A stretch of 26,349 nucleotides of DNA from an uncultured Lachnospiraceae bacterium (GTDB lineage Bacteria > Bacillota > Clostridia > Oscillospirales > CAG-272), in assembly GCA_964609165.1 (NCBI GenBank), contig CAZSSE010000001.1, positions 1 through 26,349 on the forward strand. Reading direction: 5' to 3'. The position numbers and the translations under genes were made by a program. Below the pieces are notes generated by a model that was given only the letters and a program-made list of their open reading frames with translations, searched no databases and was not told where the DNA came from. Shown here piece after piece: positions 12 through 14,591 of this stretch (positions within the stretch are counted from its first letter, which is position 1; each line of letters begins with the position of its first letter).

Positions 12-695
12 CTAAGCGGATTGCCTTCTTTTCATTCGTTGCCAACTGATATATCCGTAAATATCATTAAACAGAAATGCAACGAAGCAGACGACCACCG
101 AGATATAGCGAATATCCGATATGGCTGCCAGCACCCATAAAACGATCAAAACAATATCGTTAGCCGCATAAGCCATGGCGAAGCCGGGACATCTGCGAAA
201 CGTCAGATATACCGCAAGAAAGCTCGTAGTTACAGATATGGTGCTTGGTATGATATTAGCGGTATTGAAATATTCAAGAATAAAATAGAAGACCGCCGTT
301 GCGATTAAAGAAAGCAGCCACATCAGAAGCTGTTCGAGCTTGCCTATGCTATTCACCTTGACCTCTGCCTTATTTCCCTTGTACGGATTTTTCAGCCACG
401 CAATGAGAGCGAAAATTGCCATCGGCATGGTCATTCCAAGGTATGTAATCATCTCGCCATAGTAGGAAAATGTATATGAAATAATGCCATAGAGCAGGCT
501 GAATACGATCATAAGAGCTTGACCTATCGGGTTGCCCTTTGCGTTGAATATAAGCGATGTTACGCCGATCAGTGAAGCAACCAACGTCAGATAGCTTTCA
601 CGGTCAAAAATGCAAAAGGACACAATAACAAAAATTACAGATACAGACCATAAAATGAGCTCCATATTGGAAAAATACGCAAATAGTTTTTTCAT
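12..695 (-). CDS. pnuC: PnuC-family (nicotinamide riboside/vitamin) transporter, 227 aa
   Basis: Polytopic membrane protein with the PnuC-like N-terminal pattern (SLIGVTSLIFNAKGNPIGQ...LYG...YYGEM) and C-terminal YGYISW. Start moved from the ORF-track 731 to ATG 695 because GGAGG (705-701) precedes it. The substrate cannot be determined from sequence. Confidence 0.75.
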   Translation of the reverse strand: MKKLFAYFSNMELILWSVSVIFVIVSFCIFDRESYLTLVASLIGVTSLIFNAKGNPIGQALMIVFSLLYGIISYTFSYYGEMITYLGMTMPMAIFALIAWLKNPYKGNKAEVKVNSIGKLEQLLMWLLSLIATAVFYFILEYFNTANIIPSTISVTTSFLAVYLTFRRCPGFAMAYAANDIVLIVLWVLAAISDIRYISVVVCFVAFLFNDIYGYISWQRMKRRQSA

Positions 696-705
696 ACAAA
701 CCTCC

Positions 706-790
706 AAAAAAATAAGCACCCGCATGCACATCTTCTAAGACCTAACGATGTGTAAACGAATGCAAACGCATTATACTACCCGGTGGCAGT
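706..790 (-). promoter_or_regulatory. Putative transcription attenuator in the pnuC 5' leader
   Basis: Terminator-like hairpin GCAUUCG(763-757)/CGGGUGC(722-716) with inner CACAUC/GAUGUG, followed by UUAUUUUUUU. A competing hairpin AAUGC(772-768)/GCAUU(763-759) and a 5' hairpin at 790-775 are also present. Confidence 0.5.
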
Positions 791-803
791 TATATTTTTT
801 CGT

Positions 804-832
804 ATTATATCACAATTAGGGCAAAATGTCAA
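804..832 (-). promoter_or_regulatory. sigmaA promoter of pnuC
   Basis: On the minus strand: TTGACA (832-827), 17 bp, TATAAT (809-804), with a TGn extended -10. Confidence 0.85.
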
Positions 833-873
833 CAGGGAAAATCATAATTTGTCGGTAAGAGCTGTTAAGATGG

Positions 874-905
874 GTTGAATTGTTGTCTATGCTTGACAAT
901 TCAAC
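874..905. repeat. Perfect 10-bp inverted repeat with a 12-bp spacer between divergent promoters
   Basis: GTTGAATTGT (874-883) / ACAATTCAAC (896-905). Confidence 0.6.
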
Positions 906-935
906 AGTATTTTCGGATTTTTATTTCAAATGTCT

Positions 936-964
936 TTGACTGCGACACAAATATATGATAAAAT
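936..964 (+). promoter_or_regulatory. sigmaA promoter of the two-component operon
   Basis: TTGACT (936-941), 17 bp, TAAAAT (959-964), with TGn extension. Confidence 0.65.
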
Positions 965-980
965 AAATATGCGGAGATTT

Positions 981-1013
981 GTTTATTTTCAGTTTATAGA
1001 ACAGCAATAAAAT
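981..1013 (+). promoter_or_regulatory. Putative response-regulator box plus -10 (autoregulatory promoter)
   Basis: GTTTATTTTCAGTTTATA (981-998), 9 nt, TAAAAT (1008-1013). The box is 17/18 identical to the box at 2871 and has the same spacing. Confidence 0.65.
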
Positions 1014-1044
1014 AGGTGCAATCAATTAAGAGAGGTGAAAATAA

Positions 1045-1719
1045 GTGTTCCATATTCTTGTGGTAGATGATGATAAAAATACGAGGATGTACTTTGAAGC
1101 CGTGCTGAAGAACAACGGTTATACCGTAACCGTTGCAAATAACGGAGAGGATGCGCTTGAAGCTATGGACAAGGCGCATATAGATCTTGTTGTGCTTGAT
1201 ATTATGATGCCGAAAATGGACGGATATGAGCTCACCAAGACCTTGCGTGAGTGTGATAATAATCTGCCCATTCTGATGGTATCTGCCAAGCAGCTCCCCG
1301 TGGATAAGAACAGGGGATTTGCAGTTGGTACGGATGACTATATGACGAAGCCTGTTAATCAAGATGAGTTTTTATATCGCATAAAGGCACTTTTGCGTCG
1401 TGCCAAAATTGCAAACGAGCGTAAGATCGTGATCGGTGACGTGGTGATCGACTACGATTCTTTGACGGTTACGAGGGGCGGGGAGGTGCAGGAGCTTCCG
1501 CAGAAGGAATTTTTGCTGCTCTATAAATTACTGTCCTATCCCGAAAAGATTTTTACCCGTATTCAGTTGATGGACGAAATATTGGGCGCGGATAGCGAGA
1601 CGGGCTGGGAGACCGTTACCGTACACGTCGGCAGACTTCGTAAACGCTTTGAGGGTTGGGATGAATTTGAGATAGAGGCTGTTCGTGGGCTCGGATATAA
1701 GGCGGTAAAGAAGATATGA
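1045..1719 (+). CDS. OmpR/PhoB-family response regulator, HssR-like
   Basis: Receiver domain (ILVVDDD, LDIMMP, SAK, DDYMTKP) plus winged HTH (KIFTRIQLMDE...TVHVGRLR...VRGLGY). GTG start after GAGGTG. Confidence 0.95.
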   Translation: MFHILVVDDDKNTRMYFEAVLKNNGYTVTVANNGEDALEAMDKAHIDLVVLDIMMPKMDGYELTKTLRECDNNLPILMVSAKQLPVDKNRGFAVGTDDYMTKPVNQDEFLYRIKALLRRAKIANERKIVIGDVVIDYDSLTVTRGGEVQELPQKEFLLLYKLLSYPEKIFTRIQLMDEILGADSETGWETVTVHVGRLRKRFEGWDEFEIEAVRGLGYKAVKKI

Positions 1720-2804
1720 AGAAGGTTCCGGCATTGAGTATAGAAAAGCTCAAGGAAAGAACATCAAGAACCTCCTTGACCCTTGCGCTTTCTATCTTTG
1801 TTTTTGTAATTTTGCTTGCGGCAATCGGTCTTACGGCGCTTGGTCTTTGGCTGTTGACGAATGCCGGGGTGATCGTTGACGTGGACGGCGATCTTCAGCT
1901 CGGACAGGTCACTCTGTTTATGTCCTTGATCAGCCTGATTATTGGCGGCGTGGCAACTTTTTTCAGTAGCCGTATTCCTTTGAAGCCTGTCAATGAAATT
2001 ATCAATAAGATGAACCGTCTTGCCGCCGGAGATTTCAAAACAAGATTGAAGTTTGGCAATACCATGTCATCACATCCTGTCGTGAAGGAGCTTACAACAA
2101 GCTTCAACACAATGGCAAAGGAGCTTGAAAACACCGAGATGCTGCGTAATGACTTTATAAATTCATTTTCTCACGAGTTTAAAACGCCAATCGTTTCGAT
2201 CATGGGGCTTGCCAATCTTCTTGAAGCAGGTGATCTTACAGAAGAAGAGCGCGTACAGTATGCACATGCCATTCGTGAGGAATCAATGCGTCTCTCTTCT
2301 ATGGCAAGCAATATATTGAATTTGACCAAGGTGGAAAACCAAACTATCCTTACCGACGTCTCGCGGTTCAATCTTTCCGAGCAGGTGAGATCCGCCGTGC
2401 TTTTGCTCGAGGAAAAATGGACGTCAAAAAATATTGATCTACAGCTTGATTTTGACGAATTTATGATCGAAGCAAATGAAGGACTTCTCAAGCAGGTGTG
2501 GATCAATTTGATCGACAACGCTGTGAAATTTGTTCCTCGGTGCGGTACGGTTGCACTTGAGATCGGCGAGGTCGAAGAAAATCTTTGTGTAAGGATCAGA
2601 AATACCGGCAGTGAAATACCTTATGATAAACAGGATAAGATATTCAATAAATTTTATCAGGCGGACGAGTCACACGCAACGCAAGGCAACGGTATCGGTC
2701 TTGCCATCGTGAAACGAATTGTGGAGCTTCATAATGGTAGTGTCAGCGTAAGCAGCGGAAACGGAATCACCTCATTTACCGTTGTACTTCCGAAGAAGCA
2801 GTAG
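1716..2804 (+). CDS. Sensor histidine kinase (two TM helices, HAMP, HisKA, HATPase), HssS-like
   Basis: H-box SHEFKTP, N-box NLIDNAVKF, F-box IFNKFYQ, G2 GNGIGLAIV. ATGA overlap with the regulator. Confidence 0.95.
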   Translation: MKKVPALSIEKLKERTSRTSLTLALSIFVFVILLAAIGLTALGLWLLTNAGVIVDVDGDLQLGQVTLFMSLISLIIGGVATFFSSRIPLKPVNEIINKMNRLAAGDFKTRLKFGNTMSSHPVVKELTTSFNTMAKELENTEMLRNDFINSFSHEFKTPIVSIMGLANLLEAGDLTEEERVQYAHAIREESMRLSSMASNILNLTKVENQTILTDVSRFNLSEQVRSAVLLLEEKWTSKNIDLQLDFDEFMIEANEGLLKQVWINLIDNAVKFVPRCGTVALEIGEVEENLCVRIRNTGSEIPYDKQDKIFNKFYQADESHATQGNGIGLAIVKRIVELHNGSVSVSSGNGITSFTVVLPKKQ

Positions 2805-2840
2805 CTGCTTGTTCCCTTACTAAAAACAAATAAATATTTT

Positions 2841-2864
2841 GGGCAATCGATTTATCGGTTGCCC
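2841..2864 (+). terminator. Hairpin after the kinase gene, possible weak terminator
   Basis: GGGCAATCGA-TTTA-TCGGTTGCCC, a 10-bp stem with one GU pair. The U-tract is poor. Confidence 0.4.
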
Positions 2865-2870
2865 CATTCT

Positions 2871-2903
2871 GTTTAGTTTCAGTTTATATTTCGTGCGTAT
2901 AAT
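2871..2903 (+). promoter_or_regulatory. Putative response-regulator box plus -10 of the lipid operon
   Basis: GTTTAGTTTCAGTTTATA (2871-2888), 9 nt, TATAAT (2898-2903). No recognisable -35; GTTTA half-sites repeat with an 11-bp period. Confidence 0.7.
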
Positions 2904-2953
2904 TCTGTCGTAAAATCAAGAATAAACTTTGAAAATATAAGGGGAAGATCGCT

Positions 2954-3847
2954 ATGAAAAAAGTAAAAATCATCACCGATTCCTGCGCAGACATTGGCGC
3001 GGATATTCTGCAAAGGTATGATATTGATTACGTAAAAATGTCAACCATTGAAGATGGCAGGGAGGCTCCCGCACTTCTGACATGGAGTGCAGCAGATGCA
3101 CATAAACTTTATGATACCATTCGAGGCGGAAAGCGCATTATGACCGCACAGGTGTCGGTGGAAGAGTTTACTGCTGTTTTCACGAAGTATCTGGAGGAGG
3201 GCTACGATATTGTGTATATCGCCTGTTCCTCCAAGCAGTCAGGCTCTGTAAATACCGGTTACGTTACGGCTAAGGGCTTGCTGGAGAAATATCCGGACGG
3301 CAAGATCATCTGCATCGATTCTCTCAATGCAAGTATGGGCGAAGGTATGCTGGCTGTCGAGGCGGCAAAGCTTGCGGCAGAGGGTAAGAGCGCTGATGAG
3401 ATCCACAGCTATATTTTATCGATCCGAAAAAGGGTAAATCAATTTGTTACTGTACATACTCTCGATCACCTGAAAAAATCAGGTCGAGTTTCGGCGTCAT
3501 CCGCATTCTTTGGAAATTTAATGGGAGTAAAGCCGATTCTCATTTCAGATGTGGACGGTACACAAACGGCAGTCAAAAAGGTAAAAGGCAGACAGACCTC
3601 ATTTACCGAGATCGTAAAATGCCTGAAGGAAGCTATTGTTGAGCCGGAGAAGCAGATGGTATATATAGCTCATGCCGACTGTAGCAAGGAGGAGCTTGAA
3701 AGGCTTGTTACTCTTGTAAAGGACGAGATCCCTTGCAAGGATGTTTACATTGGACTGATCGGTCCTATCATCGGTGCCTCTATCGGTCCTGACGCAGTTG
3801 CAATTTGGGGATTTGGACAAGAGGTAACGTATAAAGCGGGAGAGTGA
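2954..3847 (+). CDS. degV: DegV-family fatty-acid-binding protein (FakB-like)
   Basis: IITDS, SSKQSGS, IDSLNASMGEG and TLDHLKKSGR motifs typical of DegV. Confidence 0.93.
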   Translation: MKKVKIITDSCADIGADILQRYDIDYVKMSTIEDGREAPALLTWSAADAHKLYDTIRGGKRIMTAQVSVEEFTAVFTKYLEEGYDIVYIACSSKQSGSVNTGYVTAKGLLEKYPDGKIICIDSLNASMGEGMLAVEAAKLAAEGKSADEIHSYILSIRKRVNQFVTVHTLDHLKKSGRVSASSAFFGNLMGVKPILISDVDGTQTAVKKVKGRQTSFTEIVKCLKEAIVEPEKQMVYIAHADCSKEELERLVTLVKDEIPCKDVYIGLIGPIIGASIGPDAVAIWGFGQEVTYKAGE

Positions 3848-3849
3848 GA

Positions 3850-5481
3850 ATGAGAACTTTAGACGGCATACTTTTCGCCAGAATGATCAATTCCGGAGCG
3901 GCAAGCCTAAAGGCGCACGCAAAGGAGGTAAACGATTTAAACGTATTTCCCATTCCCGACGGTGACACGGGCGACAATATGCTTATGACGATGATGGGTG
4001 GTGTCCATAAGGATTTCGATTGTGAGTCACTGTGCGAGGTAGCAGAGCGCGTGTCGAGCGGAATGTTGATGTCGGCACGCGGTAATTCGGGTGTAATTTT
4101 GTCGCAGTTCTTTGAGGGAATAAAAAACGGTTTTTCCGGACTTCATTCGGCAGATACTGACGCAATCGGCAGGGCCTTTCGCAATGGGGTAACGCAGGCG
4201 TATCAATCGGTTATGACACCGACCGAGGGAACCATCCTGACGGTCGTGCGCGAGGCAACCGAGTACGCTTGCAAGCAAAACACAGAAACGCCCGAGACAT
4301 TTCTGAACGCCTTTATAGAAGAAGCAAAGTTGTCTCTCGCAAGAACGCCCGAGCTTTTGCCCGTGCTGAAAAAAGCAGGTGTGGTCGATTCGGGTGCGGC
4401 AGGTCTCATTTATATCGTGGACGGAATGATGAGAGCCGTGATCGGCGAGGATGTGTCGGATATTACCGAATTTTCCGAGCACGCGCAGGAGCTTGATCTT
4501 GATGCATTCAATGAAGATAGTGTGTTGGAGTACGGATATTGTACCGAGCTTCTCGTTCGCTTACAGAATGTCAAGACCGATATATCGGCTTTCGACGTAA
4601 ATGTAATTACCGATTATTTGCAAACGATAGGCGATTCCATTGTTACCGTTCGCAACGGTAGTATAGTCAAGCTCCACGTACATACGATGACACCGCAAAG
4701 GGTGCTTGATTTCTGTCAACAATACGGCGAATTTCTCAAGGTCAAGATAGAAAATATGTCCTTGCAGCACAATAATACCGTTATCGAGGAAAAGAAATCT
4801 GCCCCTATGAAGGAGCGTAAAAGGTATGGTGTTGTTGCCGTTGCCTGCGGTGAAGGACTGAAAGAGACCTTCCGCGACAGAGGCGCGGACGTGATCGTAG
4901 ACGGCGGGCAGAGCATGAATCCATCCGCTGAGGATTTTATCGAAGCGTTTGATGAGGTTAATGCGGATGTGATCTTCGTATTTCCAAACAATAGCAATAT
5001 CATGCTGGCAGCACAGCAAGCGGCGCACTTATATGACAGCTCAGATGTGCGTGTGATCGAAAGCACCACAATCGGCGCGGGTTATGCGTCCCTTGCCATG
5101 CTGGATACGACCTCGGGGGATACCGATACGATCGTCGAGGAGCTCCAAATGGCAATGGAGGGCGTTGTGACTGCCGAGATCTCTCACTGTGTCCGAGATG
5201 CCGTAATTGATGGAAACGAAATGCACACCGGTGATTATATTGGCTTTGTCGGTAAAAGGCTTCTTTCTGTAAACCTAGAAAGACTTAATACAGTGTGTGA
5301 AGCCATAGAAAGGATCGGTTTTGAAGCCTACGACGTTTGTATTCTTTTTTGCGGTAAGGATGCGACCGAGGAGGAAGCTGAAAAAATCGAGGCTTACTTA
5401 CATTCTCACTACAAGGGAAAAGAGATATATATTATAAACGGTGGTCAGGACGTATACGATTATATTATGGTCATAGAATAA
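3850..5481 (+). CDS. fakA: DAK2-domain fatty acid kinase catalytic subunit (FakA-like)
   Basis: LNVFPIPDGDTGDNM, ARGNSGVILSQ, EGTILTV, GVVDSGA, YGYCTE, HVHT and KIENM motifs. ATG 3850 is 7 nt after GGAG; the alternative start is GTG 3844. Confidence 0.92.
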   Translation: MRTLDGILFARMINSGAASLKAHAKEVNDLNVFPIPDGDTGDNMLMTMMGGVHKDFDCESLCEVAERVSSGMLMSARGNSGVILSQFFEGIKNGFSGLHSADTDAIGRAFRNGVTQAYQSVMTPTEGTILTVVREATEYACKQNTETPETFLNAFIEEAKLSLARTPELLPVLKKAGVVDSGAAGLIYIVDGMMRAVIGEDVSDITEFSEHAQELDLDAFNEDSVLEYGYCTELLVRLQNVKTDISAFDVNVITDYLQTIGDSIVTVRNGSIVKLHVHTMTPQRVLDFCQQYGEFLKVKIENMSLQHNNTVIEEKKSAPMKERKRYGVVAVACGEGLKETFRDRGADVIVDGGQSMNPSAEDFIEAFDEVNADVIFVFPNNSNIMLAAQQAAHLYDSSDVRVIESTTIGAGYASLAMLDTTSGDTDTIVEELQMAMEGVVTAEISHCVRDAVIDGNEMHTGDYIGFVGKRLLSVNLERLNTVCEAIERIGFEAYDVCILFCGKDATEEEAEKIEAYLHSHYKGKEIYIINGGQDVYDYIMVIE

Positions 5482-5494
5482 ATCGGAGGGGAGA

Positions 5495-6124
5495 ATGAAG
5501 GTATTTCTTTACATAGCGGCGGCGATATGCGGATATGTTGTAGCAGGAATGAATCCCGCCATTACCCTCTCAAGGGCAATATACAAAAAAGATATACGAG
5601 AATGTGGGAGCGGCAATCCCGGCTTTACCAATTTTAAAAGAACCTTTGGCAACAAATGGGCATGGTGGGTGCTCGTGCTTGATCTATCCAAAGCCGCAGT
5701 CGTCGTAGGAATTTTTGCTTGGCTTTTGTCCCGTCATGGCGTGGATTTTCAGCTTGGAGCGTCATACACGGGAATGTTTTGTATGCTCGGTCACGCTTTT
5801 CCGCTTGAATATCAATTCAAGGGCGGTAAGGGATTTCTTGTCTGCTTGTCTACTATGTATATAATCGATTGGCGCGTGGGATTGATCGCAACGGGAATTA
5901 TGGTCGCGCTGCTGTTGATTACCAAATATATGTCGCTTTCTACCACAATTGCAATGCTTCTGTGCCCGATTTTGCTTATCCCGTTCGGTGCATCGCTCCC
6001 GGTTATCCTAATGGCGTCATTTTGCTCGATATTTATGACGGTCAGACACAAGGAAAACTTCAAACGACTTTTCAAGGGAACTGAATCCAAATTTTCTATC
6101 AAAGGCAAGAAGGATAAAAAGTAA
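5495..6124 (+). CDS. plsY: Acyl-phosphate:glycerol-3-phosphate acyltransferase
   Basis: DIRECGSGNPGFTN, DLSK, GHAFP...FKGGKG and RHKENFKRL motifs. Confidence 0.93.
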   Translation: MKVFLYIAAAICGYVVAGMNPAITLSRAIYKKDIRECGSGNPGFTNFKRTFGNKWAWWVLVLDLSKAAVVVGIFAWLLSRHGVDFQLGASYTGMFCMLGHAFPLEYQFKGGKGFLVCLSTMYIIDWRVGLIATGIMVALLLITKYMSLSTTIAMLLCPILLIPFGASLPVILMASFCSIFMTVRHKENFKRLFKGTESKFSIKGKKDKK

Positions 6125-6134
6125 AAATTGAAAT

Positions 6135-6848
6135 ATGATAGATAATGAGAAACGTACACAACACAAAGCGCTGAAAACATTCAGACGGATCTTTATGATC
6201 CTGTTTTGGGGCGTATTGCTTCTGCTTTGCTTTCTGAACAGAGAGAAAATATCGGTTGAAGGAATTGTCGATCTCGTTCCCAAGGACGCGGTTTTGTCCA
6301 TTGTCGTGATGCTGCTTCTTTTTGCCGTTAAAGGTGTTGCGGTCTTTATTTACGGTAGTATTCTTTATGCGGCAAGCGGTATTCTGTTTTCGCTTCCCGT
6401 GGCAATTATTGTGAATACTGTCGGGACAGTCATAATGACGACTATTCCGTTTTACATAGGGAAGAAGGCGGGAAGGCGAATGATCGGCGAGCTTGTCAAG
6501 AAAAACTCTAAGTTGGAAATTCTGCAAGACACTCAAAACAAAAATGAATTTCTCGTCAGCTTCTTTCTTCGCATGGTCGGGCTTTTGCCTTCAGATCTTG
6601 TGGCAATGTATCTTGGTTCAAGCGGAATGTGCTACAAGCCATACCTCTTCGGAACCGTCATTGGACTTATGCCTTCTATCGTGTGCTTTTCCGTTATGGG
6701 AATGAGCATTGATGACGTTGGTTCACCGCAATTTATAATATCTTTGATCGTAGAAGCGGGACTTATGCTTCTCGCACTTGTCATTTATTTTATTTGGAAA
6801 TGTAAGAACAAAAAGAAACGTGAGATGATGAACAATGATGAAGCATAG
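6135..6848 (+). CDS. TVP38/TMEM64 (VTT domain, DedA superfamily) membrane protein
   Basis: Multi-TM protein with SGILFS...G...NTVG...FYIGK and FFLRMVGLLPSDLV...G motifs. Confidence 0.85.
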   Translation: MIDNEKRTQHKALKTFRRIFMILFWGVLLLLCFLNREKISVEGIVDLVPKDAVLSIVVMLLLFAVKGVAVFIYGSILYAASGILFSLPVAIIVNTVGTVIMTTIPFYIGKKAGRRMIGELVKKNSKLEILQDTQNKNEFLVSFFLRMVGLLPSDLVAMYLGSSGMCYKPYLFGTVIGLMPSIVCFSVMGMSIDDVGSPQFIISLIVEAGLMLLALVIYFIWKCKNKKKREMMNNDEA

Positions 6849-7683
6849 CATGAATCTTTTGGTAACGTTGAATGAAGCCTATTTGCCGTACCTGAATACG
6901 CTTCTTTCTTCTGTTATTTATCATAATCCGGATACTTATTTCACCGTGTACCTGCTGCACACGTCAATTCGCAGGGAAGCGACCGAAAAAACAAATGCCA
7001 TTTTGGGGAAGAGCGGTAAGCTTGTTATGATCGAAGCCGAAGGTCACGGGCTTGACAATGCGCCTACTACCGACCGCTTTCCCAAGGAAATGTATTACCG
7101 TATTTTTGCGGCAAAATATTTGCCGGAGAATGTTAGTAGAGTTTTATATCTTGATCCTGACATCATTGTTAACGGATCGCTTGCAGAGCTTTATGATACA
7201 CCGCTTGACGGATATTATTTTGCGGCGGCTTCTCACAATGGGAGGGTGACGCGATTTATTAACGGAAAGCGTCTTCGCTTACAAAAGGGAGCTCCTTATA
7301 TCAATTCGGGCGTTCTTCTGATGAATCTTGATCTCTTGCGTAAGGAGCAGAAATATGAGAATGTATTTACCTATATCGAAAAGAAGGGAACCAAGCTGCT
7401 TTTGCCGGATCAGGATGTGATCAGTGGGTTGTACGGAGAACGAATTTTTAAGCTGAGTGCCTATATCTACAATATGACAGATCGCTTGTATCGTTATGAC
7501 CGAATATTCGGTAAGAGACATAAATTTGAATGGTATAAGGAAAACTCGGTTATTTTCCATTATTGTGGAAAAAACAAGCCGTGGAAAAAGAATTATTCCG
7601 GTGCTTTCGGGATTTTCTATAAAGAGACTCTTGCGCGAATGGGAAGCGCGTGTGAGGCAGAAGGGGGAGCTACATATGCATAG
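6835..7683 (+). CDS. Glycosyltransferase family 8 (GspA/RfaJ-like)
   Basis: MYYRIFA, RVLYLDPDIIV (DxD), YINSGVLLMNL, DQDVI and HYCGKNKPW motifs. Start uncertain (6835, 6838 or 6850). Confidence 0.9.
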   Translation: MMKHSMNLLVTLNEAYLPYLNTLLSSVIYHNPDTYFTVYLLHTSIRREATEKTNAILGKSGKLVMIEAEGHGLDNAPTTDRFPKEMYYRIFAAKYLPENVSRVLYLDPDIIVNGSLAELYDTPLDGYYFAAASHNGRVTRFINGKRLRLQKGAPYINSGVLLMNLDLLRKEQKYENVFTYIEKKGTKLLLPDQDVISGLYGERIFKLSAYIYNMTDRLYRYDRIFGKRHKFEWYKENSVIFHYCGKNKPWKKNYSGAFGIFYKETLARMGSACEAEGGATYA

Positions 7684-8242
7684 AATATTTAAGAAAAAAC
7701 AAATACTTACCATACCGAACCTGCTTAGCTTGGTTCGCCTTGCGCTCATTCCTGTAATCGTTTGGTTGTACAGCTATGAGCAGAAATATTACGCCGCGAT
7801 AGGTGTGATCATTCTGTCCGGCGCGACAGATATTATCGACGGTTGGATCGCGCGGCATTTTCATATGATATCAGACTTTGGAAAGATCCTTGACCCCGTA
7901 GCGGACAAGCTGACGCAGGCAGCAATGCTTTTATGCTTGCTGTCAAAATATAAATTGATGTGGGGACTTGTAATATTGTTTGCGCTTTGTGAGATAACCA
8001 AGCTGATACTCGGTGCTGTTGTTATGAAAAAGCACGACGAGGTTAACAGTGCAAAATGGTATGGAAAGATGAACACTGTGGTTATTTACGTAACAATGAT
8101 GCTTTTGATTTTGTTCCCTCAAATGCATAGTGTTCTGGCAAACGCGCTGATGCTGCTTTGCGGTACCGGTATGATAATCGCTCACGTGCTGTATTTTGTA
8201 TTCCTTGGCAATATTCTGCTTGATAGGAGTCACCGCGGATGA
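7676..8242 (+). CDS. CDP-alcohol phosphatidyltransferase (PgsA-like)
   Basis: IPNLLSLVR and the signature DIIDGWIARHFHMISDFGKILDPVAD. Start at ATG 7676 after GGGGGAG, not the ORF-track 7496. The acceptor alcohol is not certain. Confidence 0.9.
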   Translation: MHRIFKKKQILTIPNLLSLVRLALIPVIVWLYSYEQKYYAAIGVIILSGATDIIDGWIARHFHMISDFGKILDPVADKLTQAAMLLCLLSKYKLMWGLVILFALCEITKLILGAVVMKKHDEVNSAKWYGKMNTVVIYVTMMLLILFPQMHSVLANALMLLCGTGMIIAHVLYFVFLGNILLDRSHRG

Positions 8243-9048
8243 TTAAACGAACACTTACGGGAGCTGTGATATTGGTGTTCGTGTATGCGTGGCTTTTATT
8301 TTCACATATCCCGATCGTTTTATACATAGGAACACTGATATTGAGTGCTTTAGCTGTTCTTGAAATTATGAGAATTTGCAGGACCGACAATCATAAAGTG
8401 CTTTACGGTACAATAGTAATATATGCTTTGCTGTTGCTATTGCCCATACCGAGGTACGAATACCCGATGATGTTGATATTTCCCGCTGCCTTGATCATGT
8501 TCGGATTTATGATGGCGGATAAGGAGAAATTTCGGATATTCAATCCTGCTTTTGCAATCGTAGTCAGCATTACGGTTATATTGCTTTTCAAGGCTATTCC
8601 GACGCTGAGATCGATGGATAACGGATTTTATTATTTGACATTTGCAGTAACGTCTTGTTTTGTAACCGACATTGCTGCATTTTTGTTTGGCAGGGCTTTT
8701 GGCTCGCATAAGCTGTGTCCAAAAATAAGTCCCAAGAAAACGGTTGAGGGAGCGATAGGTGGTGCGGCGTGTGCCGTTATCATCTCCATGCTTGCCGCGG
8801 TTATTTTGCACAGGCTTGCAAAATTACACTTTAGCGTCATTGTGCTCGTAATATGGGCTGTGCTTGTATCTGTTATAGGTCAGCTTGGCGATCTTTGTAT
8901 GTCGGTCGTCAAGCGTATTGCGGGAGTAAAGGATTTTGGCGCGCTATTGCCCGGACACGGCGGTATTCTTGACCGATTTGACAGTCACGTTTTAGCCATA
9001 CCGTTTACGCTTGTCTTCTGTGTGTTGACGGGTGGATTTATTCGGTAA
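8239..9048 (+). CDS. cdsA: Phosphatidate cytidylyltransferase
   Basis: ISPKKTVEG and KDFGALLPGHGGILDRFDS signatures. ATGA overlap with the upstream gene. Confidence 0.93.
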   Translation: MIKRTLTGAVILVFVYAWLLFSHIPIVLYIGTLILSALAVLEIMRICRTDNHKVLYGTIVIYALLLLLPIPRYEYPMMLIFPAALIMFGFMMADKEKFRIFNPAFAIVVSITVILLFKAIPTLRSMDNGFYYLTFAVTSCFVTDIAAFLFGRAFGSHKLCPKISPKKTVEGAIGGAACAVIISMLAAVILHRLAKLHFSVIVLVIWAVLVSVIGQLGDLCMSVVKRIAGVKDFGALLPGHGGILDRFDSHVLAIPFTLVFCVLTGGFIR

Positions 9049-9144
9049 AAAAAGCAAAACAAAGGTCAGAGCCATTTTGTATAAGATTTTTGGAATGAGC
9101 ACTGAATTTTCCAAAATGACGATCAAGGTCGGACAAATAATAAT

Positions 9145-9184
9145 GCAATATCCCCCGCTTCATGTCAAAAGCGGGGGATATTGC
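9145..9184 (-). terminator. Intrinsic terminator between convergent cdsA and lysR
   Basis: Perfect 16-bp stem GCAATATCCCCCGCTT/AAGCGGGGGATATTGC with an 8-nt loop. The U-rich tail is on the minus strand (ATTATTATTTG). Confidence 0.8.
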
Positions 9185-9198
9185 GGGGATTATATAAA

Positions 9199-10095
9199 TT
9201 ATCCTTTATGAACATTACTTTGATACAATTCAACAATTCCTTTCAATACGTCCAAATGGGCAAAGTCCTTGTTGTAGGCAATATTCATTTCACGCATCAT
9301 ACTCAGATTTTCAATAGGAAGAATAGTCAGCTTTCCTTTCTTTGCCTCGCTGATGCAAGCGCTTCGGGGAAGAATAGATACGCCGAGCCCCTTTTTTACA
9401 AGCTCATTTATCGTAGAAACATTATCCACCTCCAAAGACACGTTAAAATTATCTATAGACTCGTTCATACTGATAAGTGTCGCTTCAAACAACTGTCTTG
9501 TTGCGGATGTGGGTAAACGCAGGATCATGTTTTGCTTTTTCAGATCATTTATCGTAACCAAAGAATGCTTTGCAATCGGATTATCGTTGCTCATTACGCA
9601 AACCAGATAGTCTGTATCCACCATAAAGTAATTCAGCTTGGCGGAGTGACGTTTTCCCTCCACGATGGCAATATCAAGCTCGTAATTCTCAAGCATATCA
9701 TAAAGATTATTTATGGTATCAGTAATTATCGTTATACTTACGTGCGAGTATTGGTTCACGTATTTTGCCAATATTTCCGAGATCATATTGTTCTCGGAGG
9801 TATGGGTAATACCGATACGAAATCTTGAAACGTGCTTTTGCTCATCAGCAATTTCGAATAGCATTTTTTCGTGCAGTGCTTTCAATCTTCTTGCGTATGT
9901 AACGGCAATTTCTCCTTCCGGCGTAAGTCTGAAATCCCCCTTGCCGCGCACAAAAATCTTTGCATTGCACTCTTTTTCAAGCTGACAGATATGGTTACTT
10001 ACGGCGGGCTGTGTCAGCGACAGGATCTTAGCTGCTTTCGTGAAATTCTTACAATCGGAGACCACAAGCAGTGTTTCAAGCTTTACATCTAACAT
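9199..10095 (-). CDS. LysR-family transcriptional regulator
   Basis: N-terminal HTH NFTKAAKILSLTQPAVSNHICQLE plus a PBP2 effector domain. RBS GAGGT; divergent from the antiporter/ATP synthase cluster. Confidence 0.95.
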   Translation of the reverse strand: MLDVKLETLLVVSDCKNFTKAAKILSLTQPAVSNHICQLEKECNAKIFVRGKGDFRLTPEGEIAVTYARRLKALHEKMLFEIADEQKHVSRFRIGITHTSENNMISEILAKYVNQYSHVSITIITDTINNLYDMLENYELDIAIVEGKRHSAKLNYFMVDTDYLVCVMSNDNPIAKHSLVTINDLKKQNMILRLPTSATRQLFEATLISMNESIDNFNVSLEVDNVSTINELVKKGLGVSILPRSACISEAKKGKLTILPIENLSMMREMNIAYNKDFAHLDVLKGIVELYQSNVHKG

Positions 10096-10147
10096 AGCAT
10101 ATACCTCTACTATAAAATAAATTTATCAATACCTAAAAAAATATAAG

Positions 10148-10176
10148 TTGACATTATAATATTTTTAGTATATCAT
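10148..10176 (+). promoter_or_regulatory. Putative sigmaA promoter of the antiporter-mgtC-atp cluster
   Basis: TTGACA (10148-10153), 17 bp, TATCAT (10171-10176). Confidence 0.55.
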
Positions 10177-10613
10177 ATAATAGATCAATTTGCAAGCGGA
10201 GAAGTGCATTTTGTGAAAAATATTTTGATGATATTTAAGCGATTTTTCATTAAGCCTTCTGACGGCAGGTTGCTTTTGAAAGAACGATAGCAGGACGACT
10301 TGTTTTGCACGGCTGTGATCGACGGCACCGTAAAGGGGCGCGGAAGAAAATGGTTGATTTTTTTGGATCTTGCTTTGTTTTTATCAGTACTGTTTTTACT
10401 CGTCAGGGATGATTATATAGAAGCGCACACGCTATCGTTTGGTACATATGCTTGCTGTTACGGTGGTCTGCGCTTTTTTATTTTGAAATTTGAAATCCGA
10501 CGATCTGAGTATCGGGACAGATGTGTATTATCGTAGGTTATGCGTCCTTATGCGTCTGCCCATTATTATTTACGAAAATACCGTAGCACTTGGCTACTAT
10601 GGAGGTATATGAA

Positions 10614-12071
10614 ATGTTGAATGGTCTTTACGAGCGCTTGGGGACACAATCGAATGTTGCTGTTATTATTATCTCTGTCGCCATTATGCTGATATGCGGA
10701 TTTTTAATGACTCGTGTTACGAAAAAACTACGTCTGCCAAACGTGACTGCGTACATAATAGTCGGTATTCTGATCGGACCGTATTGCTTGGATCTTATTC
10801 CGAAATCTATCATAGAAGGTACGGAATTTCTCGCCGACATCGCACTCGCGTTCATTGCATTCAGTACGGGAGAGTTTTTCAAATTTTCAAAGCTGAAAAA
10901 CAGCGTAGGCAAGGTCGTGGTCATAACGCTTGCCGAGGCGCTTTTAGCGTCTGTGCTTGTATTCGTTCTTTCCTTCTGGATATTGCATCTGAGCCTTGCC
11001 TTTTCTATCGTTCTGGCTGCACTTGCATCGGCAACTGCCCCCGCCTCTACGATGATGACGATCAGGCAGACGGGCGCGAAGGGCGACTTTGTAGATACGC
11101 TTTTACAAGTAGTTGCCTATGACGACATCGTGGCTCTTCTGGCTTACAGCATTGCCATCTCAGTTGCCGTCACCTACACAACAGGCGAAGCCTTCAGCTT
11201 TTTGAACATTGTTGTCCCCATTTTGAAAAATTTCGGAGCCCTGGCGCTTGGCGGCGTATTCGGATTACTTATGAAGCTTCTGATACATAGAAAACGGTCT
11301 ACCGACAATCGCCTGATTATCTCTATTGCGCTTTTGTTCGCATTTTGCGGTATATGCGCGGCGATGGATGTTTCTCCGCTTCTCGGATGTATGTCTATGG
11401 GAACGGTGTACGTCAATCTTGCAGATGATGATAAGCTATTTAAACAGCTAAACTATTTCAGCCCTCCTATTCTGCTTCTTTTCTTCGTTCGCTCGGGTCT
11501 TTCCTTTGATTTAAATGCTTTGGTAAATCCCTCCGGCGCGATTGGCGGTGTTTCACTCTTGCTGATCGGCGTGTTGTATTTCTTTGTACGTATTATCGGA
11601 AAATACGTGGGCGCATTTCTTGGCTGTCTTTGTGTTAAAAAGCCCGTCAGAACCCGTAATTATTTGGGGCTCGCTCTTATTCCGCAGGCGGGAGTTGCAA
11701 TTGGTCTTGCGGCACTTGGTGCAAGAACGCTCGGCGGCGATGTCGGAAATGCCTTGCAGACCATTATACTTGCTTCAAGCGTGCTTTACGAGTTGGTCGG
11801 TCCCGCTTGCGCAAAGCTCTCGCTTTATTTGTCAAAATCGTATTCAACTAAGCTTGAAGACATAGTTCCTCTTAATAAAGAGCCGAGCACCGAGGAAAAA
11901 CCTAAAAACACCGTCGAGGAATTGATCGAGAGAATACAGATCATCCAAGGCGAGCTTGCAAAAGAGAAAATTAACGAAGAGGAGCACGCATTTACAGAGG
12001 CGGCTGAGGAACATTTTGAGGCTTTGTCGGTTCGCCATGCCTATCTTGCCTCGGGAGGAAAGAGAAAATGA
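10614..12071 (+). CDS. CPA2-family cation:proton antiporter with a charged helical C-terminal tail
   Basis: About 12-13 TM helices; LPNVTAYIIVGILIGP, ATAPAST, VAYDDI and RIIGKY motifs. ATG 10614 lies 7 nt after GGAGGT. Confidence 0.88.
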   Translation: MLNGLYERLGTQSNVAVIIISVAIMLICGFLMTRVTKKLRLPNVTAYIIVGILIGPYCLDLIPKSIIEGTEFLADIALAFIAFSTGEFFKFSKLKNSVGKVVVITLAEALLASVLVFVLSFWILHLSLAFSIVLAALASATAPASTMMTIRQTGAKGDFVDTLLQVVAYDDIVALLAYSIAISVAVTYTTGEAFSFLNIVVPILKNFGALALGGVFGLLMKLLIHRKRSTDNRLIISIALLFAFCGICAAMDVSPLLGCMSMGTVYVNLADDDKLFKQLNYFSPPILLLFFVRSGLSFDLNALVNPSGAIGGVSLLLIGVLYFFVRIIGKYVGAFLGCLCVKKPVRTRNYLGLALIPQAGVAIGLAALGARTLGGDVGNALQTIILASSVLYELVGPACAKLSLYLSKSYSTKLEDIVPLNKEPSTEEKPKNTVEELIERIQIIQGELAKEKINEEEHAFTEAAEEHFEALSVRHAYLASGGKRK

Positions 12072-12778
12072 TAGATCCTATTGCAAAAATACTTGGTGAA
12101 TGGTCTCAGGAGCTGAACGGATACAGTATTTTATTCAGAATTGTTTTATCGGTGACGCTTGCCGCCGTGATCGGCTGTGAGCGTTCAAGCAAACGTCACT
12201 CGGCAGGACTTCGCACCTTTATATTGGTGTCCTTGGCTATGACGGTGACTATGCTCCTTGACGGATATTTAATGGGAACGGGCACATACGTTCTCTCGGG
12301 CGCAGGCATTATAGGTGTGGCAATTATCAGCGTAAATTCCTTGCTTGTAAGCTCACGAAGTCAAATTAAGGGCTTGACCACTGCCGCAGGGCTTTGGACC
12401 TGCGCGATCATCGGTCTTGCGGTGGGAGCGGGTTACTACACGGTTACGTTTATTGCGTTTGGCGTACTGCTGTGCTGCCTTTCGATCTTCCCGTCGTTGG
12501 AGCGTTATTTGAAAAACAGATCTAACCATTTTGAAATACATCTTGAATTAAAAGATAACAGCTATCTCGAAAACTTTGTTACGACGATACGCAGGCTTGG
12601 CTTGCGCATTGATGATATTGAGGCAAATCCAGCTTACGCAGGCTCGGGGCTGAGCGTATATTCTATCGCAATTTCGATCAGCAGCCAGGAGCTGAAAAAG
12701 TATAAAACACACACAGAGATCATCGAGGCACTTCGCAGCTTGGATTACATTTGCCACATAGAAGAAATGTTACTTTGA
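12068..12778 (+). CDS. mgtC: MgtC/SapB-family membrane protein with an ACT-like C-terminal domain
   Basis: IGCERSSKRHSAGLRT and KGLTTAAGLW signatures. ATGA overlap with the antiporter. Confidence 0.9.
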   Translation: MIDPIAKILGEWSQELNGYSILFRIVLSVTLAAVIGCERSSKRHSAGLRTFILVSLAMTVTMLLDGYLMGTGTYVLSGAGIIGVAIISVNSLLVSSRSQIKGLTTAAGLWTCAIIGLAVGAGYYTVTFIAFGVLLCCLSIFPSLERYLKNRSNHFEIHLELKDNSYLENFVTTIRRLGLRIDDIEANPAYAGSGLSVYSIAISISSQELKKYKTHTEIIEALRSLDYICHIEEMLL

Positions 12779-12833
12779 TTTGGCACTTGATCTTTCCATA
12801 CCAAATGGTAAAAAATAAATGGAGAAAAATAAG

Positions 12834-13673
12834 ATGAAAACGAAAAAAAGGAACAAGAAACTGATTTTCCTTGCGTTTTGGCTTGCAACTATTGTATTGA
12901 TAGTTGTTGGAATAATATTGCTGTGGCCACCCGGAGCTAAGCATCAAACGATCAAAGAGGTCATGAAGGACGGAGTTTTGCATGAAGACAACAAGATGTC
13001 TTTATTTGGGCTTGAGGTAAATCCTGCGCTGATTTCCGCTTATACGGTTACGGCAATATTATTGCTTATAGCTGCACTTATAAGAATATTTGCAATACCA
13101 AAATTCAAGACCGTACCCGGTAAGCTTCAATGTGTTATCGAAAAGCTGGTGGAGTTCTTCTCGGATATGGCACACGCCAACAGTCATCACAGGCCACGTT
13201 TCGTGGGAGCGTATATATTCAGCGCGGGTATTTACATATTTTTCGGAACGCTGTTCGAGCTGTTCGGAGTACAATGGCTTACAACAGACGGGGTATCAGT
13301 GTCTCTCCCCGCGCCGTTATCGGATATCAATGCCGCAATAGCAATGGGAGTCATGTCATATATAATAATTCTCGGCGCAGGCATTATCTGCGGAGGCTTC
13401 CGCGGGGCACTCGGTGTCCTGAAGGACTTTTCGTTACCTATATCGATGAGCTTCCGCTTGTTCGGCGCACTGATCAGTGGATTGCTTGTTACCGAGCTTG
13501 TCTATTATTATGTAAGCCTCAGCTTTGTATTACCTGTAATCGTGGGAGTTCTGTTTACACTTTTACACGCTATCGTACAGACCTATGTGCTTGCAACGCT
13601 GGTATCGATATTCTACGGCGAAGCCGTTGAACCAAAGCCAAAGAAAGTTAAAATTAAGAAAGCTAAGAGGTAA
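12834..13673 (+). CDS. atpB: F1Fo ATP synthase subunit a, with an extra N-terminal hydrophobic helix
   Basis: VPGKLQCVIE, APLSDIN, PISMSFRLFG (essential Arg) and VQTYV...L motifs. ATG 12834 follows GGAG; the alternative start is 12819. Confidence 0.9.
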   Translation: MKTKKRNKKLIFLAFWLATIVLIVVGIILLWPPGAKHQTIKEVMKDGVLHEDNKMSLFGLEVNPALISAYTVTAILLLIAALIRIFAIPKFKTVPGKLQCVIEKLVEFFSDMAHANSHHRPRFVGAYIFSAGIYIFFGTLFELFGVQWLTTDGVSVSLPAPLSDINAAIAMGVMSYIIILGAGIICGGFRGALGVLKDFSLPISMSFRLFGALISGLLVTELVYYYVSLSFVLPVIVGVLFTLLHAIVQTYVLATLVSIFYGEAVEPKPKKVKIKKAKR

Positions 13674-13679
13674 ACTAAA

Positions 13680-14057
13680 ATGAAAAAAATTATATCTGTC
13701 ATTATATCATTGATTTTGATGCTTACACTTGTTGCGATGACGTCCGTCAGCGTTTCTGCCGCTGAGTCAGATTCTGCTCAAAGCGATGAAGCTGCTGCGG
13801 CTGTTGAAGAGACCGAGGCAAATAACAGCAGTGTTCTTTCTACTAAAGCTATCGCTGCCGCAATTGTTGTGGCGGTTGTTGGAGCGACGGGTGCCATCGG
13901 TATGGCGATCGCAATTTCCAAGAGTACCGACAGTATGGCTCGTCAGCCGGAAATAGCGGGAAAAATCAACTCGACAATGATGCTCGGCATCGTATTTATT
14001 GAAACTGCGATCATTTATGCCTTGATTGTCGCAATTCTTATTATATTTGTTTTGTAA
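13680..14057 (+). CDS. atpE: F1Fo ATP synthase subunit c with a ~51-aa N-terminal extension
   Basis: ARQPE loop and FIETAIIY ion-binding helix. RBS GAGGT before Met1. Confidence 0.93.
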   Translation: MKKIISVIISLILMLTLVAMTSVSVSAAESDSAQSDEAAAAVEETEANNSSVLSTKAIAAAIVVAVVGATGAIGMAIAISKSTDSMARQPEIAGKINSTMMLGIVFIETAIIYALIVAILIIFVL

Positions 14058-14069
14058 GAGGGAACGAAT

Positions 14070-14591
14070 ATGCCACTCAACATAGATTTTTTGCAGATTC
14101 TTCTGCATATGCTGAATTTTGTTATTCTTGCGGGTGGTCTTACTTTTCTTCTGTTCAATCCGGTCAGCCGTTTTTTGGAACAGCGCAGGGAGCAGCTTGC
14201 CGAAGCGGAAAGGCGGAACCGAGAGTTAGCTGAAGAAAATGAAAGACTTAGAACAGAGTATGAGCAAAAGCTGCGTGATGCCGATAGGGAAATCTCGGAT
14301 AAGAAGAAAACGGTAGAGAAGGAATGGGCGGATATTTCCGAGCAATACATCGTAGAAGCAAAGGAGAAGGCATCTGCTATCATCATTGCCGCAGAGAAGG
14401 AAGCGGAAGACCGCAAGGAGCACATTCTTGAATCGGCGCAGGCTGAGATCGGTGAGCTTATTGTTACGGCAACGCAGAAACTACTCAGCGATACAGTAAC
14501 CCCAGAACGCAACAGTGCTTTATACGACGAGTTTATACGTGTTGCCGAAAGCACTACTGCAAAAAAGAGGTCAGAGCATGATAAAAAATGA
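14070..14591 (+). CDS. atpF: F1Fo ATP synthase subunit b
   Basis: N-terminal TM (NFVILAGGLTFLLFNPV) followed by a long charged coiled coil; position after atpE. Confidence 0.9.
   Translation: MPLNIDFLQILLHMLNFVILAGGLTFLLFNPVSRFLEQRREQLAEAERRNRELAEENERLRTEYEQKLRDADREISDKKKTVEKEWADISEQYIVEAKEKASAIIIAAEKEAEDRKEHILESAQAEIGELIVTATQKLLSDTVTPERNSALYDEFIRVAESTTAKKRSEHDKK

Follow-up and report, generated by a model that had tools for sequence, protein, structure and literature searches.

A probable accessory membrane-lipid operon under predicted two-component control in an uncultured gut Clostridia bacterium

Why would a bacterium place genes for fatty-acid salvage and phospholipid synthesis, together with a glycosyltransferase and a DedA-superfamily membrane protein, directly behind a two-component system, and are these the cell's ordinary phospholipid genes or an addition to them? 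The question is raised by a stretch of 26,349 nucleotides, referred to here as the window, which is the whole of contig CAZSSE010000001.1 (C1) in a metagenome-assembled genome (MAG; GCA_964609165.1) of an uncultured Lachnospiraceae bacterium, an assembly of 318 contigs and 1.68 Mb with 80% completeness. Seven genes between positions 2954 and 9048 are at issue, and the answer that we favor on balance is that the adjacent two-component system controls them as an accessory operon for membrane lipids, and that the bacterium probably obtains all its fatty acids by scavenging. Gene identities were assigned by Pfam matches above the gathering score, with NCBIfam equivalog cut-offs as a second test. 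The genes, in their order, are as follows.

2954-3847, + strand: degV/fakB, fatty-acid-binding subunit of fatty acid kinase (Pfam DegV, 218 bits)
3844-5481, + strand: fakA, catalytic subunit of fatty acid kinase (Dak2, FakA_M and FakA_C domains)
5495-6124, + strand: plsY paralog, acyl-phosphate:glycerol-3-phosphate acyltransferase (Pfam PF02660/G3P_acyltransf, 139 bits, cut-off 24)
6135-6848, + strand: TVP38/TMEM64-type membrane protein of the DedA superfamily (DedA), putative lipid scramblase/flippase (Pfam VTT_dom, 70 bits, cut-off 33.9)
6835-7683, + strand: GT8, soluble retaining GT-A glycosyltransferase (Pfam PF01501 Glyco_transf_8, 128 bits)
7676-8242, + strand: CDP-alcohol transferase paralog (CDPOH), PgsA-like or CAP-type cardiolipin-synthase-like (Pfam CDP-OH_P_transf, 129 bits)
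8239-9048, + strand: cdsA paralog, CDP-diacylglycerol synthase (Pfam PF01148/CTP_transf_1, 182 bits, profile positions 2-262 of 264)

An earlier sequence-only reading had described seven co-oriented genes with "gaps of at most 13 bp or overlaps", and this description proved exact, since all seven open reading frames lie on the + strand, each is recognised by Pfam over the gathering score, and the successive junctions measure -4, +13, +10, -14, -8 and -4 bp, DedA and GT8 overlapping by 14 bp and GT8 and CDPOH by 8 bp. The fakA gene starts with a GTG that overlaps the degV stop. The longest CDPOH reading frame opens at 7496, inside GT8, and its conserved domain begins about 70 residues further on; because of a GGGGGA ribosome-binding site and the alignment with ortholog N-termini, the likely start is the ATG at 7676, giving a gene of 7676-8242. 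Contigs of other metagenome runs bridge the junctions between the histidine kinase gene and degV, plsY and DedA, GT8 and CDPOH, and CDPOH and cdsA, one such contig coming from an independent study with identical sequence, so the layout is not an assembly artefact. The spacing suggests that the seven genes are co-transcribed.

Are these the only phospholipid genes of the cell? Every pathway gene of the operon has another copy in the MAG, 32-40% identical to the operon version. A second degV-fakA pair, likewise adjacent, lies on contig C106 (32% and 35% identity to the operon copies), a second plsY on C130 (38-40%), and a second cdsA on C127 within a pyrH-frr-uppS-cdsA-dxr cluster (33%). A pgsA gene follows a MiaB/RimO-like gene, identified by eye, on C185 (35-37%, an N-terminal fragment), a second pgsA occupies C31:5384-5959 (33-38% identity to the operon CDPOH), and plsC, which is not in the operon, lies after cmk on C62. 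Housekeeping paralogs of plsY, cdsA, pgsA and plsC, which the sequence-only reading had named as the thing to look for, were all found elsewhere and in canonical contexts. Its remark that plsC is missing is correct for the operon, and its suggestion of a lyso-type lipid as the product loses ground, given the housekeeping plsC on C62 and a sister operon (L009) that has its own plsC between plsY and DedA. The C31 CDP-alcohol transferase (L091), the third in the MAG and distinct from the C185 pgsA, adjoins a gene for an unannotated 452-aa protein without an NCBIfam match.

Scores on curated models also bear on how the two sets differ. The PlsY encoded on C130 passes TIGR00023 (155.3 vs 137.2 bits), whereas the operon PlsY stays under the cut-off of this equivalog (119.3 vs 137.2 bits); likewise, the C31 paralog passes the PgsA cut-off of 109.1 bits with 118 bits, and the operon CDPOH falls under it (TIGR00560, 80.6 bits). 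By these scores, the C130 PlsY and the C31 PgsA appear to behave as true equivalogs, unlike the operon copies. The operon PlsY retains N41, G43, N46, D63, K66, H100, P103 and the GGKG of positions 110-113, all invariant in both paralog groups, and would best be regarded as a diverged paralog. The CDPOH motif D52-x2-DG-x2-AR-x8-G-x3-D-x3-D is invariant in 8 aligned sequences. The best model for CDPOH is the CAP-type ClsA with 88 bits, well under a cut-off of 240 that was reached by 0 of 14 control genomes, and because the protein lies under the PgsA cut-off with ClsA as its best, sub-cut-off model, its alcohol acceptor may be glycerol-3-phosphate (G3P), phosphatidylglycerol (PG) or another alcohol. 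The salvage genes pass their broader models, degV with 225 bits on TIGR00762 (cut-off 99.7) and fakA with 537 bits on TIGR03599 (cut-off 396), and the combination expected of a fatty acid kinase, FakA with an adjoining DegV-family partner, is present. The operon FakA and DegV score below the equivalogs FakA_VfrB (429 vs 975) and FakB1 (122 vs 350), as do the housekeeping copies, and the E. coli-based equivalog PRK11624 is reached neither by the operon CdsA (108.7) nor by the housekeeping CdsA (83.9). The operon copies keep the family-conserved residues; they are old and diverged paralogs, and probably active ones.

Mis-binning of C1 was considered as the source of this paralogy, because GT8 is nearly absent from the genus and C1 carries no marker gene, and was rejected as improbable. 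The composition of the contig (GC, tetranucleotide) is not an outlier, C1 ranking 55 of 117 contigs by tetranucleotide distance, and the two-component system, a PnuC gene and pieces of the operon recur, with 66-78% DNA identity, in many other members of the genus. Other carriers are duplicated as well: four other operon-carrying genomes have a second cdsA elsewhere in 4 of 4 cases and a second plsY elsewhere in 3 of 4, the sole other plsY of the remaining genome (G062) sitting in the operon's own locus, and a genome with an operon version without plsY and cdsA has one copy of each. The claim of an extra module as opposed to housekeeping clustering therefore gains support, paralogs of every step lying elsewhere and the same duplication recurring in other carrier genomes. 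One relative (G063, the genome of locus L010) encodes five PlsY and three CdsA proteins, including two of the operon type that lie on separate contigs and share 85% and 69% identity with the window PlsY, which suggests that it holds two versions of the module.

How might such a second set be controlled? The features that precede the operon are the following, RR and HK denoting the response regulator and the histidine kinase.

980-998, + strand: response-regulator box TGTTTATTTTCAGTTTATA, a direct repeat GTTTA-N6-GTTTA, 9 nt upstream of the -10 element TAAAAT of the two-component operon
1045-1719, + strand: OmpR/PhoB-type RR (Pfam Response_reg and Trans_reg_C)
1716-2804, + strand: HK of the intramembrane-sensing type (Pfam HAMP, HisKA and HATPase)
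2841-2864, + strand: terminator-like hairpin at the end of the two-component operon, separating the kinase from the lipid operon
2870-2903, + strand: promoter of the lipid operon, with the box TGTTTAGTTTCAGTTTATA at 2870-2888, a 9-nt spacer and the -10 element TATAAT at 2898-2903

The hydropathy scan placed two N-terminal membrane helices of HK within residues 16-89, joined by a very short outer loop. No -35 hexamer was found at either box promoter (980-1013 and 2870-2903), and the layout reads as activator-dependent and class II-like, with the box taking the -35 position. The 19-bp box has the consensus TGTTTA(G/T)TTTCAGTTTATA, and a scan of the whole MAG allowing up to 3 mismatches gave two matches, at 980-998 and 2870-2888. 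Because the box was found at these two sites only, the regulon predicted in this species would comprise the two-component system and the lipid operon. RR orthologs that are 76-91% identical adjoin lipid genes in many genomes, with the same box upstream. The sequence-only reading had called the module inducible, and the operon does look inducible, with an RR box at the -35 position of its promoter and only two such boxes in the genome; we consider it fairly probable that it is an inducible accessory lipid-synthesis operon. The regulatory mechanism itself would be conventional. The far end of the operon is marked by one more feature.

9145-9184, between cdsA and the convergent LysR gene: strong hairpin with a perfect 17-bp stem and a T-run on the minus strand

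This hairpin is common to the convergent cdsA and LysR genes, and because the T-run is present only on the LysR side, termination of the lipid operon here may be inefficient.

Does the same regulator always head the same genes? The genus was represented by 72 species representatives, 17 of them high-quality; the two-component system occurs in at least 20 of its genomes, and in the 20 loci compared within the genus the regulator and the box are constant and the cargo is variable. A divergent DgkB-like lipid kinase gene (dagK) is the cargo at 10 loci, the box being found with up to 3 mismatches in 9 of them; fakA follows at L100, L101, L106, L116 and L118, with degV nearby in three; and single loci carry degV-fakA-plsY-cdsA and then a large activase-type protein (L102), CDPOH-cdsA (L099) or DedA-CDPOH (L110). 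The box and RR also precede plsC-dagK-GT8-CDPOH-DedA-cdsA (L030), DedA-GT8-ABC/FtsX (L033), ftsH and then lipid genes (L009, L045, L017 and L022), and a small alarmone synthetase followed by GT8-CDPOH (L052). The nearest full operons are those of L009 and L045, with FakA and PlsY 84-86% identical to those of the window. L009 reads RR-HK-box-ftsH-degV-fakA-plsY-plsC-DedA-DedA-GT8-CDPOH-cdsA, followed by genes for a 1412-aa protein and an alpha/beta hydrolase; both are longer than the window operon, which has neither ftsH nor plsC and lacks the first of the two DedA genes as well as both genes of the tail. The theme shared by these cargoes appears to be phosphatidate made from salvaged parts and carried on to head groups, with two predicted routes of entry, from fatty acid via Fak-PlsY-PlsC and from diacylglycerol via DagK.

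Several observations on these relatives stand beside the operon itself. A protein of about 1410 aa follows cdsA or CDPOH in L009 (11217-16440) and L045 (10354-15579) and also occurs in L012, L017 and L102; the 1412-aa version contains two BcrAD/BadFG ATPase repeats (activase domains) and a DUF2229, an architecture that the single-gene plasmalogen synthase (PlsA) resembles (PMC9702350, PMC12838417). A PlsA-like reading of this protein, drawn from architecture and those papers only, is offered as a lead. It is followed by a Hydrolase_4-type alpha/beta hydrolase in L009 and L045, both genes being absent from the window operon, and a homolog of the large BcrAD/DUF2229 protein, 46-50% identical, is encoded on C144 of the MAG. 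Several relatives have one more, diverged PlsY paralog, which shares about 30% identity with the operon PlsY and lies directly after HK at L045:908-1540, L102:935-1528 and L105:3041-3628, upstream of the box where a box is present. L012 contains at least 7 regulator boxes within 15 kb (668-14726), which precede genes of the AI-2E family, MGDG-synthase, CmpB-type and ABC-exporter genes and RR itself, so that the regulon predicted there would be much larger than in the window genome.

What do GT8 and DedA add to the lipid genes? The GT8 motifs D107-P-D109 (DxD) and H242-YCG-K-NKPW (H-x2-G-x2-KPW) are invariant in 14 orthologs, and the hydropathy scan found no membrane helix in this protein. A profile of GT8 orthologs matched PDB 3tzt over its full length (E 3e-76) and LgtC (1g9r) with E 7e-26. 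The DedA protein has a 52%-identical ortholog that carries the NCBI name 'TVP38/TMEM64 family protein', and it fails the NCBIfam UptA equivalog with 28 bits against a cut-off of 250. GT8 was found in 2 of the 72 species of the genus, namely the window genome and one other (86% complete, 6% contamination), and in 0 of the 17 high-quality genomes. At least 572 stretches from species-representative genomes contain a relative, and uncultured gut Clostridia account for nearly all of them. A few records of cultured isolates are also included; the DedA-GT8 pair occurs in the record of Roseburia sp. AF12-17LB (L027) and in an assembly labelled Agathobacter (L038), and GT8 without the DedA partner in Agathobaculum (L018) and Vescimonas (L085).

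Neighbours of GT8 within 5 kb were counted in the best 80 loci of the at least 572 related stretches. DedA is the commonest (28 of 80 loci), usually directly upstream and overlapping GT8, followed by an alpha/beta hydrolase (12), CDPOH (10, often with cdsA), CdsA (6), DagK (4), an MGDG-synthase-type glycosyltransferase (4), PlsY (4), PlsC (3), a PLD-type cardiolipin synthase (3) and an LtaS-like sulfatase (2). At least one glycerolipid gene lies near GT8 in 39 of the 80 loci. The three loci with the PLD-type cardiolipin synthase hint that GT8 may act on PG or cardiolipin. Judged from gene neighbourhood, the broader proposal that GT8 acts on a membrane lipid is one to which we give slightly less than an even chance.

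A natural strain, about 97% identical, has undergone a deletion that bears directly on how these genes belong together.

6285-7542, + strand: segment of 1258 bp missing in the natural strain, an in-frame DedA/GT8 deletion

In run X6, one contig of this strain passes directly from 6284 to 7543 and continues for 243 nt beyond the junction, and depth over the deleted segment is zero or near zero in X6 and X8, both gut metagenomes of another study. Most of DedA and GT8 is lost, and what remains is an in-frame fusion of DedA codons 1-50 with GT8 codons 237-282; CDPOH-cdsA is intact, the overlapping CDPOH start included. DedA and GT8 therefore behave as a unit that the cell can do without and loses as a whole, the supply genes being retained. 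Taken with the variable cargo of the genus, the natural deletion shows that GT8 and CDPOH-CdsA need not occur together, which weakens the idea of a single dedicated line from fatty acid to glycosylated phospholipid. GT8 may still act on a common phospholipid such as PG or cardiolipin.

Where would the acyl chains come from? No ketoacyl-ACP synthase (PF00109) and no FabZ-type protein (PF07977) was found in the MAG, and among the 20 genomes of the genus that are at least 90% complete, a FabF-type gene (PF00109) is present in 2, the same 2 in which a FabZ/FabA-type gene (PF07977) adjoins it. A search of 21 genomes found FakA in all of them, with between one and three full-length copies per genome, and PlsX is present in the MAG. 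Because FabF and FabZ are mostly missing and FakA is universal, the genus is probably a fatty-acid auxotroph without type II synthesis (FASII), in which salvage would probably be the only source of acyl chains. Salvage is thus general in the genus and not special to this operon, which would represent a regulated second salvage line as opposed to a special scavenging capacity.

The favored account, an accessory lipid operon under two-component control, can be set out as a sequence of proposed steps. HK, with its nearly absent external loop, would sense some membrane state and phosphorylate RR, which would bind the GTTTA-N6-GTTTA box at 2870-2888 in place of a -35 element and switch on the seven genes. 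By family, FakB/DegV and FakA would convert free fatty acid to acyl-phosphate, the PlsY paralog would yield lysophosphatidate, the housekeeping PlsC encoded outside the operon phosphatidate, the CdsA paralog CDP-diacylglycerol (CDP-DAG), and the CDPOH paralog an anionic phospholipid, either phosphatidylglycerol-phosphate or cardiolipin. Gene neighbourhood alone suggests that GT8 most likely adds a sugar to a membrane lipid at the cytoplasmic face and that the TVP38 protein may move the GT8-modified lipid, or another, across the bilayer; the two would form an add-on cassette separable from the supply genes. The net effect would be that a membrane signal raises the output of phospholipid, or changes its decoration, with any available free fatty acid as the source.

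Several points weigh against this account. Every enzymatic step is assigned by family membership, and co-transcription and induction are predicted from sequence. The MAG is just 80% complete, and no phylogenetic marker gene is present on contig C1. Horizontal transfer of the operon is likely, because the nearest full operons (L009 and L045) belong to genomes outside the genus set that was searched. In relatives the regulon extends to genes for FtsH, an alarmone synthetase and ABC transporters, and a common stress response, as opposed to a common pathway, may account for the linkage. In 41 of the 80 loci GT8 has no recognisable lipid neighbour, which leaves room for a non-lipid acceptor, and the bacterial TVP38 subfamily is without an experimentally defined substrate (PMC10127716).

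The alternative that survives best is a special case of the favored account, in which the operon would chiefly detoxify free fatty acids that damage the membrane, by esterifying dietary or host fatty acids into phospholipid, and HK would sense the fatty acid within the membrane. FakAB and PlsY head the operon, the cargo of genus-mates is often fakA alone or degV-fakA, and a genus without FASII would be constantly exposed to, and dependent on, exogenous fatty acids; moreover, a study of S. aureus connects the activity of the two-component system SaeRS with fatty acid kinase and with the pool of free fatty acids (PMC5539427). However, the dagK, CDPOH-cdsA and DedA-GT8 cargoes without Fak genes are left unexplained, and the fatty acid as the signal of the kinase is a conjecture, which makes this narrower version rather doubtful.

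Two further explanations concern GT8 and its partner, and we regard both as unlikely, to a similar degree. According to the first, a sharper form of the main idea in the sequence-only reading, the operon is a dedicated pathway for a glycosylated phospholipid, with its own CDP-DAG branch leading to PG or cardiolipin, GT8 glycosylating the head group and TVP38 flipping the product outward. The 8-bp overlap of GT8 with CDPOH and their adjacency in 10 of the 80 loci, often with cdsA, are in keeping with this, as are the three loci in which a PLD-type cardiolipin synthase without cdsA takes the position of CDPOH, possibly as a non-orthologous replacement. Glucosylated cardiolipin and glycosylated PG have been described in some Gram-positive bacteria, and we know of no enzyme that has been assigned to either. 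Nevertheless, CDPOH is not nearby in 70 of the 80 GT8 loci, genus-mates carry CDPOH-cdsA or DedA-CDPOH without GT8, the natural deletion removes DedA/GT8 and keeps CDPOH-cdsA, and GT8 also lies beside MGDG-synthase-type and LtaS-type genes, so that a glycolipid or teichoic-acid acceptor would fit equally well. A literature search of limited coverage for glycosylated PG or cardiolipin found no bacterial case, its hits being papers on archaea and mitochondria.

According to the second, GT8 and TVP38 do not belong to the lipid pathway, a wall polymer, teichoic acid or protein being decorated and DedA handling the polyprenyl-phosphate carrier, with the lipid genes sharing an envelope-stress operon. 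Such an operon would agree with the ftsH, alarmone synthetase, ABC-FtsX and ABC-exporter genes in the regulon of the relatives and with the 41 GT8 loci that have no lipid neighbour; known GT8 enzymes act on lipopolysaccharide (LPS) cores (LgtC) and serine-rich glycoproteins (GlyE, PDB 5gvv), and some DedA proteins flip undecaprenyl phosphate (PMC10127716). The TVP38/COG0398 branch, by contrast, has been argued to be without the residues of undecaprenyl-phosphate transport and to resemble eukaryotic phospholipid scramblases (PMC10127716), the UptA model gave only 28 of the 250 bits of its cut-off, and among the neighbours of GT8 that can be recognised, glycerolipid enzymes predominate and wall-polymer genes do not. 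Finally, that the locus is simply the cell's normal phospholipid genes lying together is very improbable and largely refuted, for although all its enzymes belong to standard phospholipid families and keep their catalytic motifs, a full second set stands in canonical neighbourhoods and scores better on curated equivalog models, GT8 occurs in just 2 of the 72 genus species, the genes that follow the same regulator vary by species, and a natural strain is without two of the seven genes.

We thus return to an accessory lipid operon, and the locus is best described as a two-component-controlled operon for membrane-lipid remodelling. A complete and regulated spare phospholipid pathway is unusual, and the operon would offer a natural system for resizing or remodelling a membrane on demand, notably in cells that scavenge their fatty acids. 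The GT8-TVP38 pair occurs widely among gut Clostridia, and because GT8 is tightly coupled to a TVP38-type DedA protein, the coupled enzyme provides a concrete handle on the substrate of such proteins. Since both cultured-isolate records and a natural deletion strain exist, the question is open to ordinary genetics and lipidomics. Tentatively, and as a less probable extension of the preferred account, GT8-TVP38 could be an undescribed cassette of a lipid glycosyltransferase and a scramblase, the first GT8 to act on a Gram-positive membrane lipid, possibly on the PG or cardiolipin head group, spread across hundreds of species of uncultured gut Clostridia and plugged into a membrane-sensing regulon with interchangeable phosphatidate-supply modules (Fak-PlsY, PlsC, DagK and CdsA); it would then be part of a modular, horizontally shuffled membrane-repair toolkit in bacteria unable to make fatty acids.

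How does the locus compare with systems already known? A literature search, incomplete in its coverage, found no such operon, no GT8-TVP38 pair and no duplicated phospholipid pathway under two-component control, and a search on fakA, plsY and cdsA together with two-component regulation likewise found no such operon. The closest parallel in logic is HexRK-HexSDF of C. difficile, where a glycosyltransferase, a deacetylase and an MprF-like flippase are under two-component control and produce an aminoglycolipid on which tolerance of daptomycin and bacitracin depends (PMC10128005). Both systems reside in Clostridia, and in both a two-component system adjoins an operon with a glycosyltransferase and a putative flippase; the adjacent two-component system of the window, with a box common to both promoters, would follow the Hex logic. 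However, HexS is of the MGDG-synthase type and HexF is MprF-like, whereas the window has GT8 and TVP38/DedA in these places, and Hex has the deacetylase HexD and no phospholipid-precursor genes, which the window operon does have. A Pfam scan found none of the HexS, HexD and HexF families in the window operon, and the locus is accordingly not a member of the Hex system, the likeness being one of logic and not of family.

The textbook Fak-PlsX-PlsY-PlsC-CdsA-PgsA route, by which Gram-positive bacteria turn exogenous fatty acid into PG, uses the same enzyme families in the same reaction order as the window operon. Unlike the textbook set, the window genes are a diverged second set in one operon with a dedicated regulator, without plsX and plsC and with GT8 and TVP38 added. 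On the regulatory side, class II activation by PhoB at the pho box shares the OmpR/PhoB-type regulator and a direct repeat, spaced at 11 bp, in the position of the -35 element; the window differs in its box, GTTTA-N6-GTTTA, and in a regulon of membrane-lipid genes. SaeS, DesK and LiaS are intramembrane-sensing kinases, to which the window HK may be likened by its two membrane helices and minimal loop. As for the glycosyltransferase, PDB 3tzt belongs to the same GT8 family and was named by its depositors only 'Glycosyl transferase family 8', with no function, and Neisseria LgtC, also of this family, has lipooligosaccharide as its substrate, a compound that is not produced by Gram-positive Clostridia. 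The window DedA agrees in its VTT domain and in the name of its ortholog with the TVP38/TMEM64 (COG0398) branch, whose members have been proposed to be phospholipid scramblases and not undecaprenyl-phosphate flippases (PMC10127716). That branch has been tied to aerobic metabolism (PMC10127716), whereas the host of the window is one of the gut Clostridia and presumably anaerobic, and unlike the branch as described, the window TVP38 is translationally coupled to GT8.

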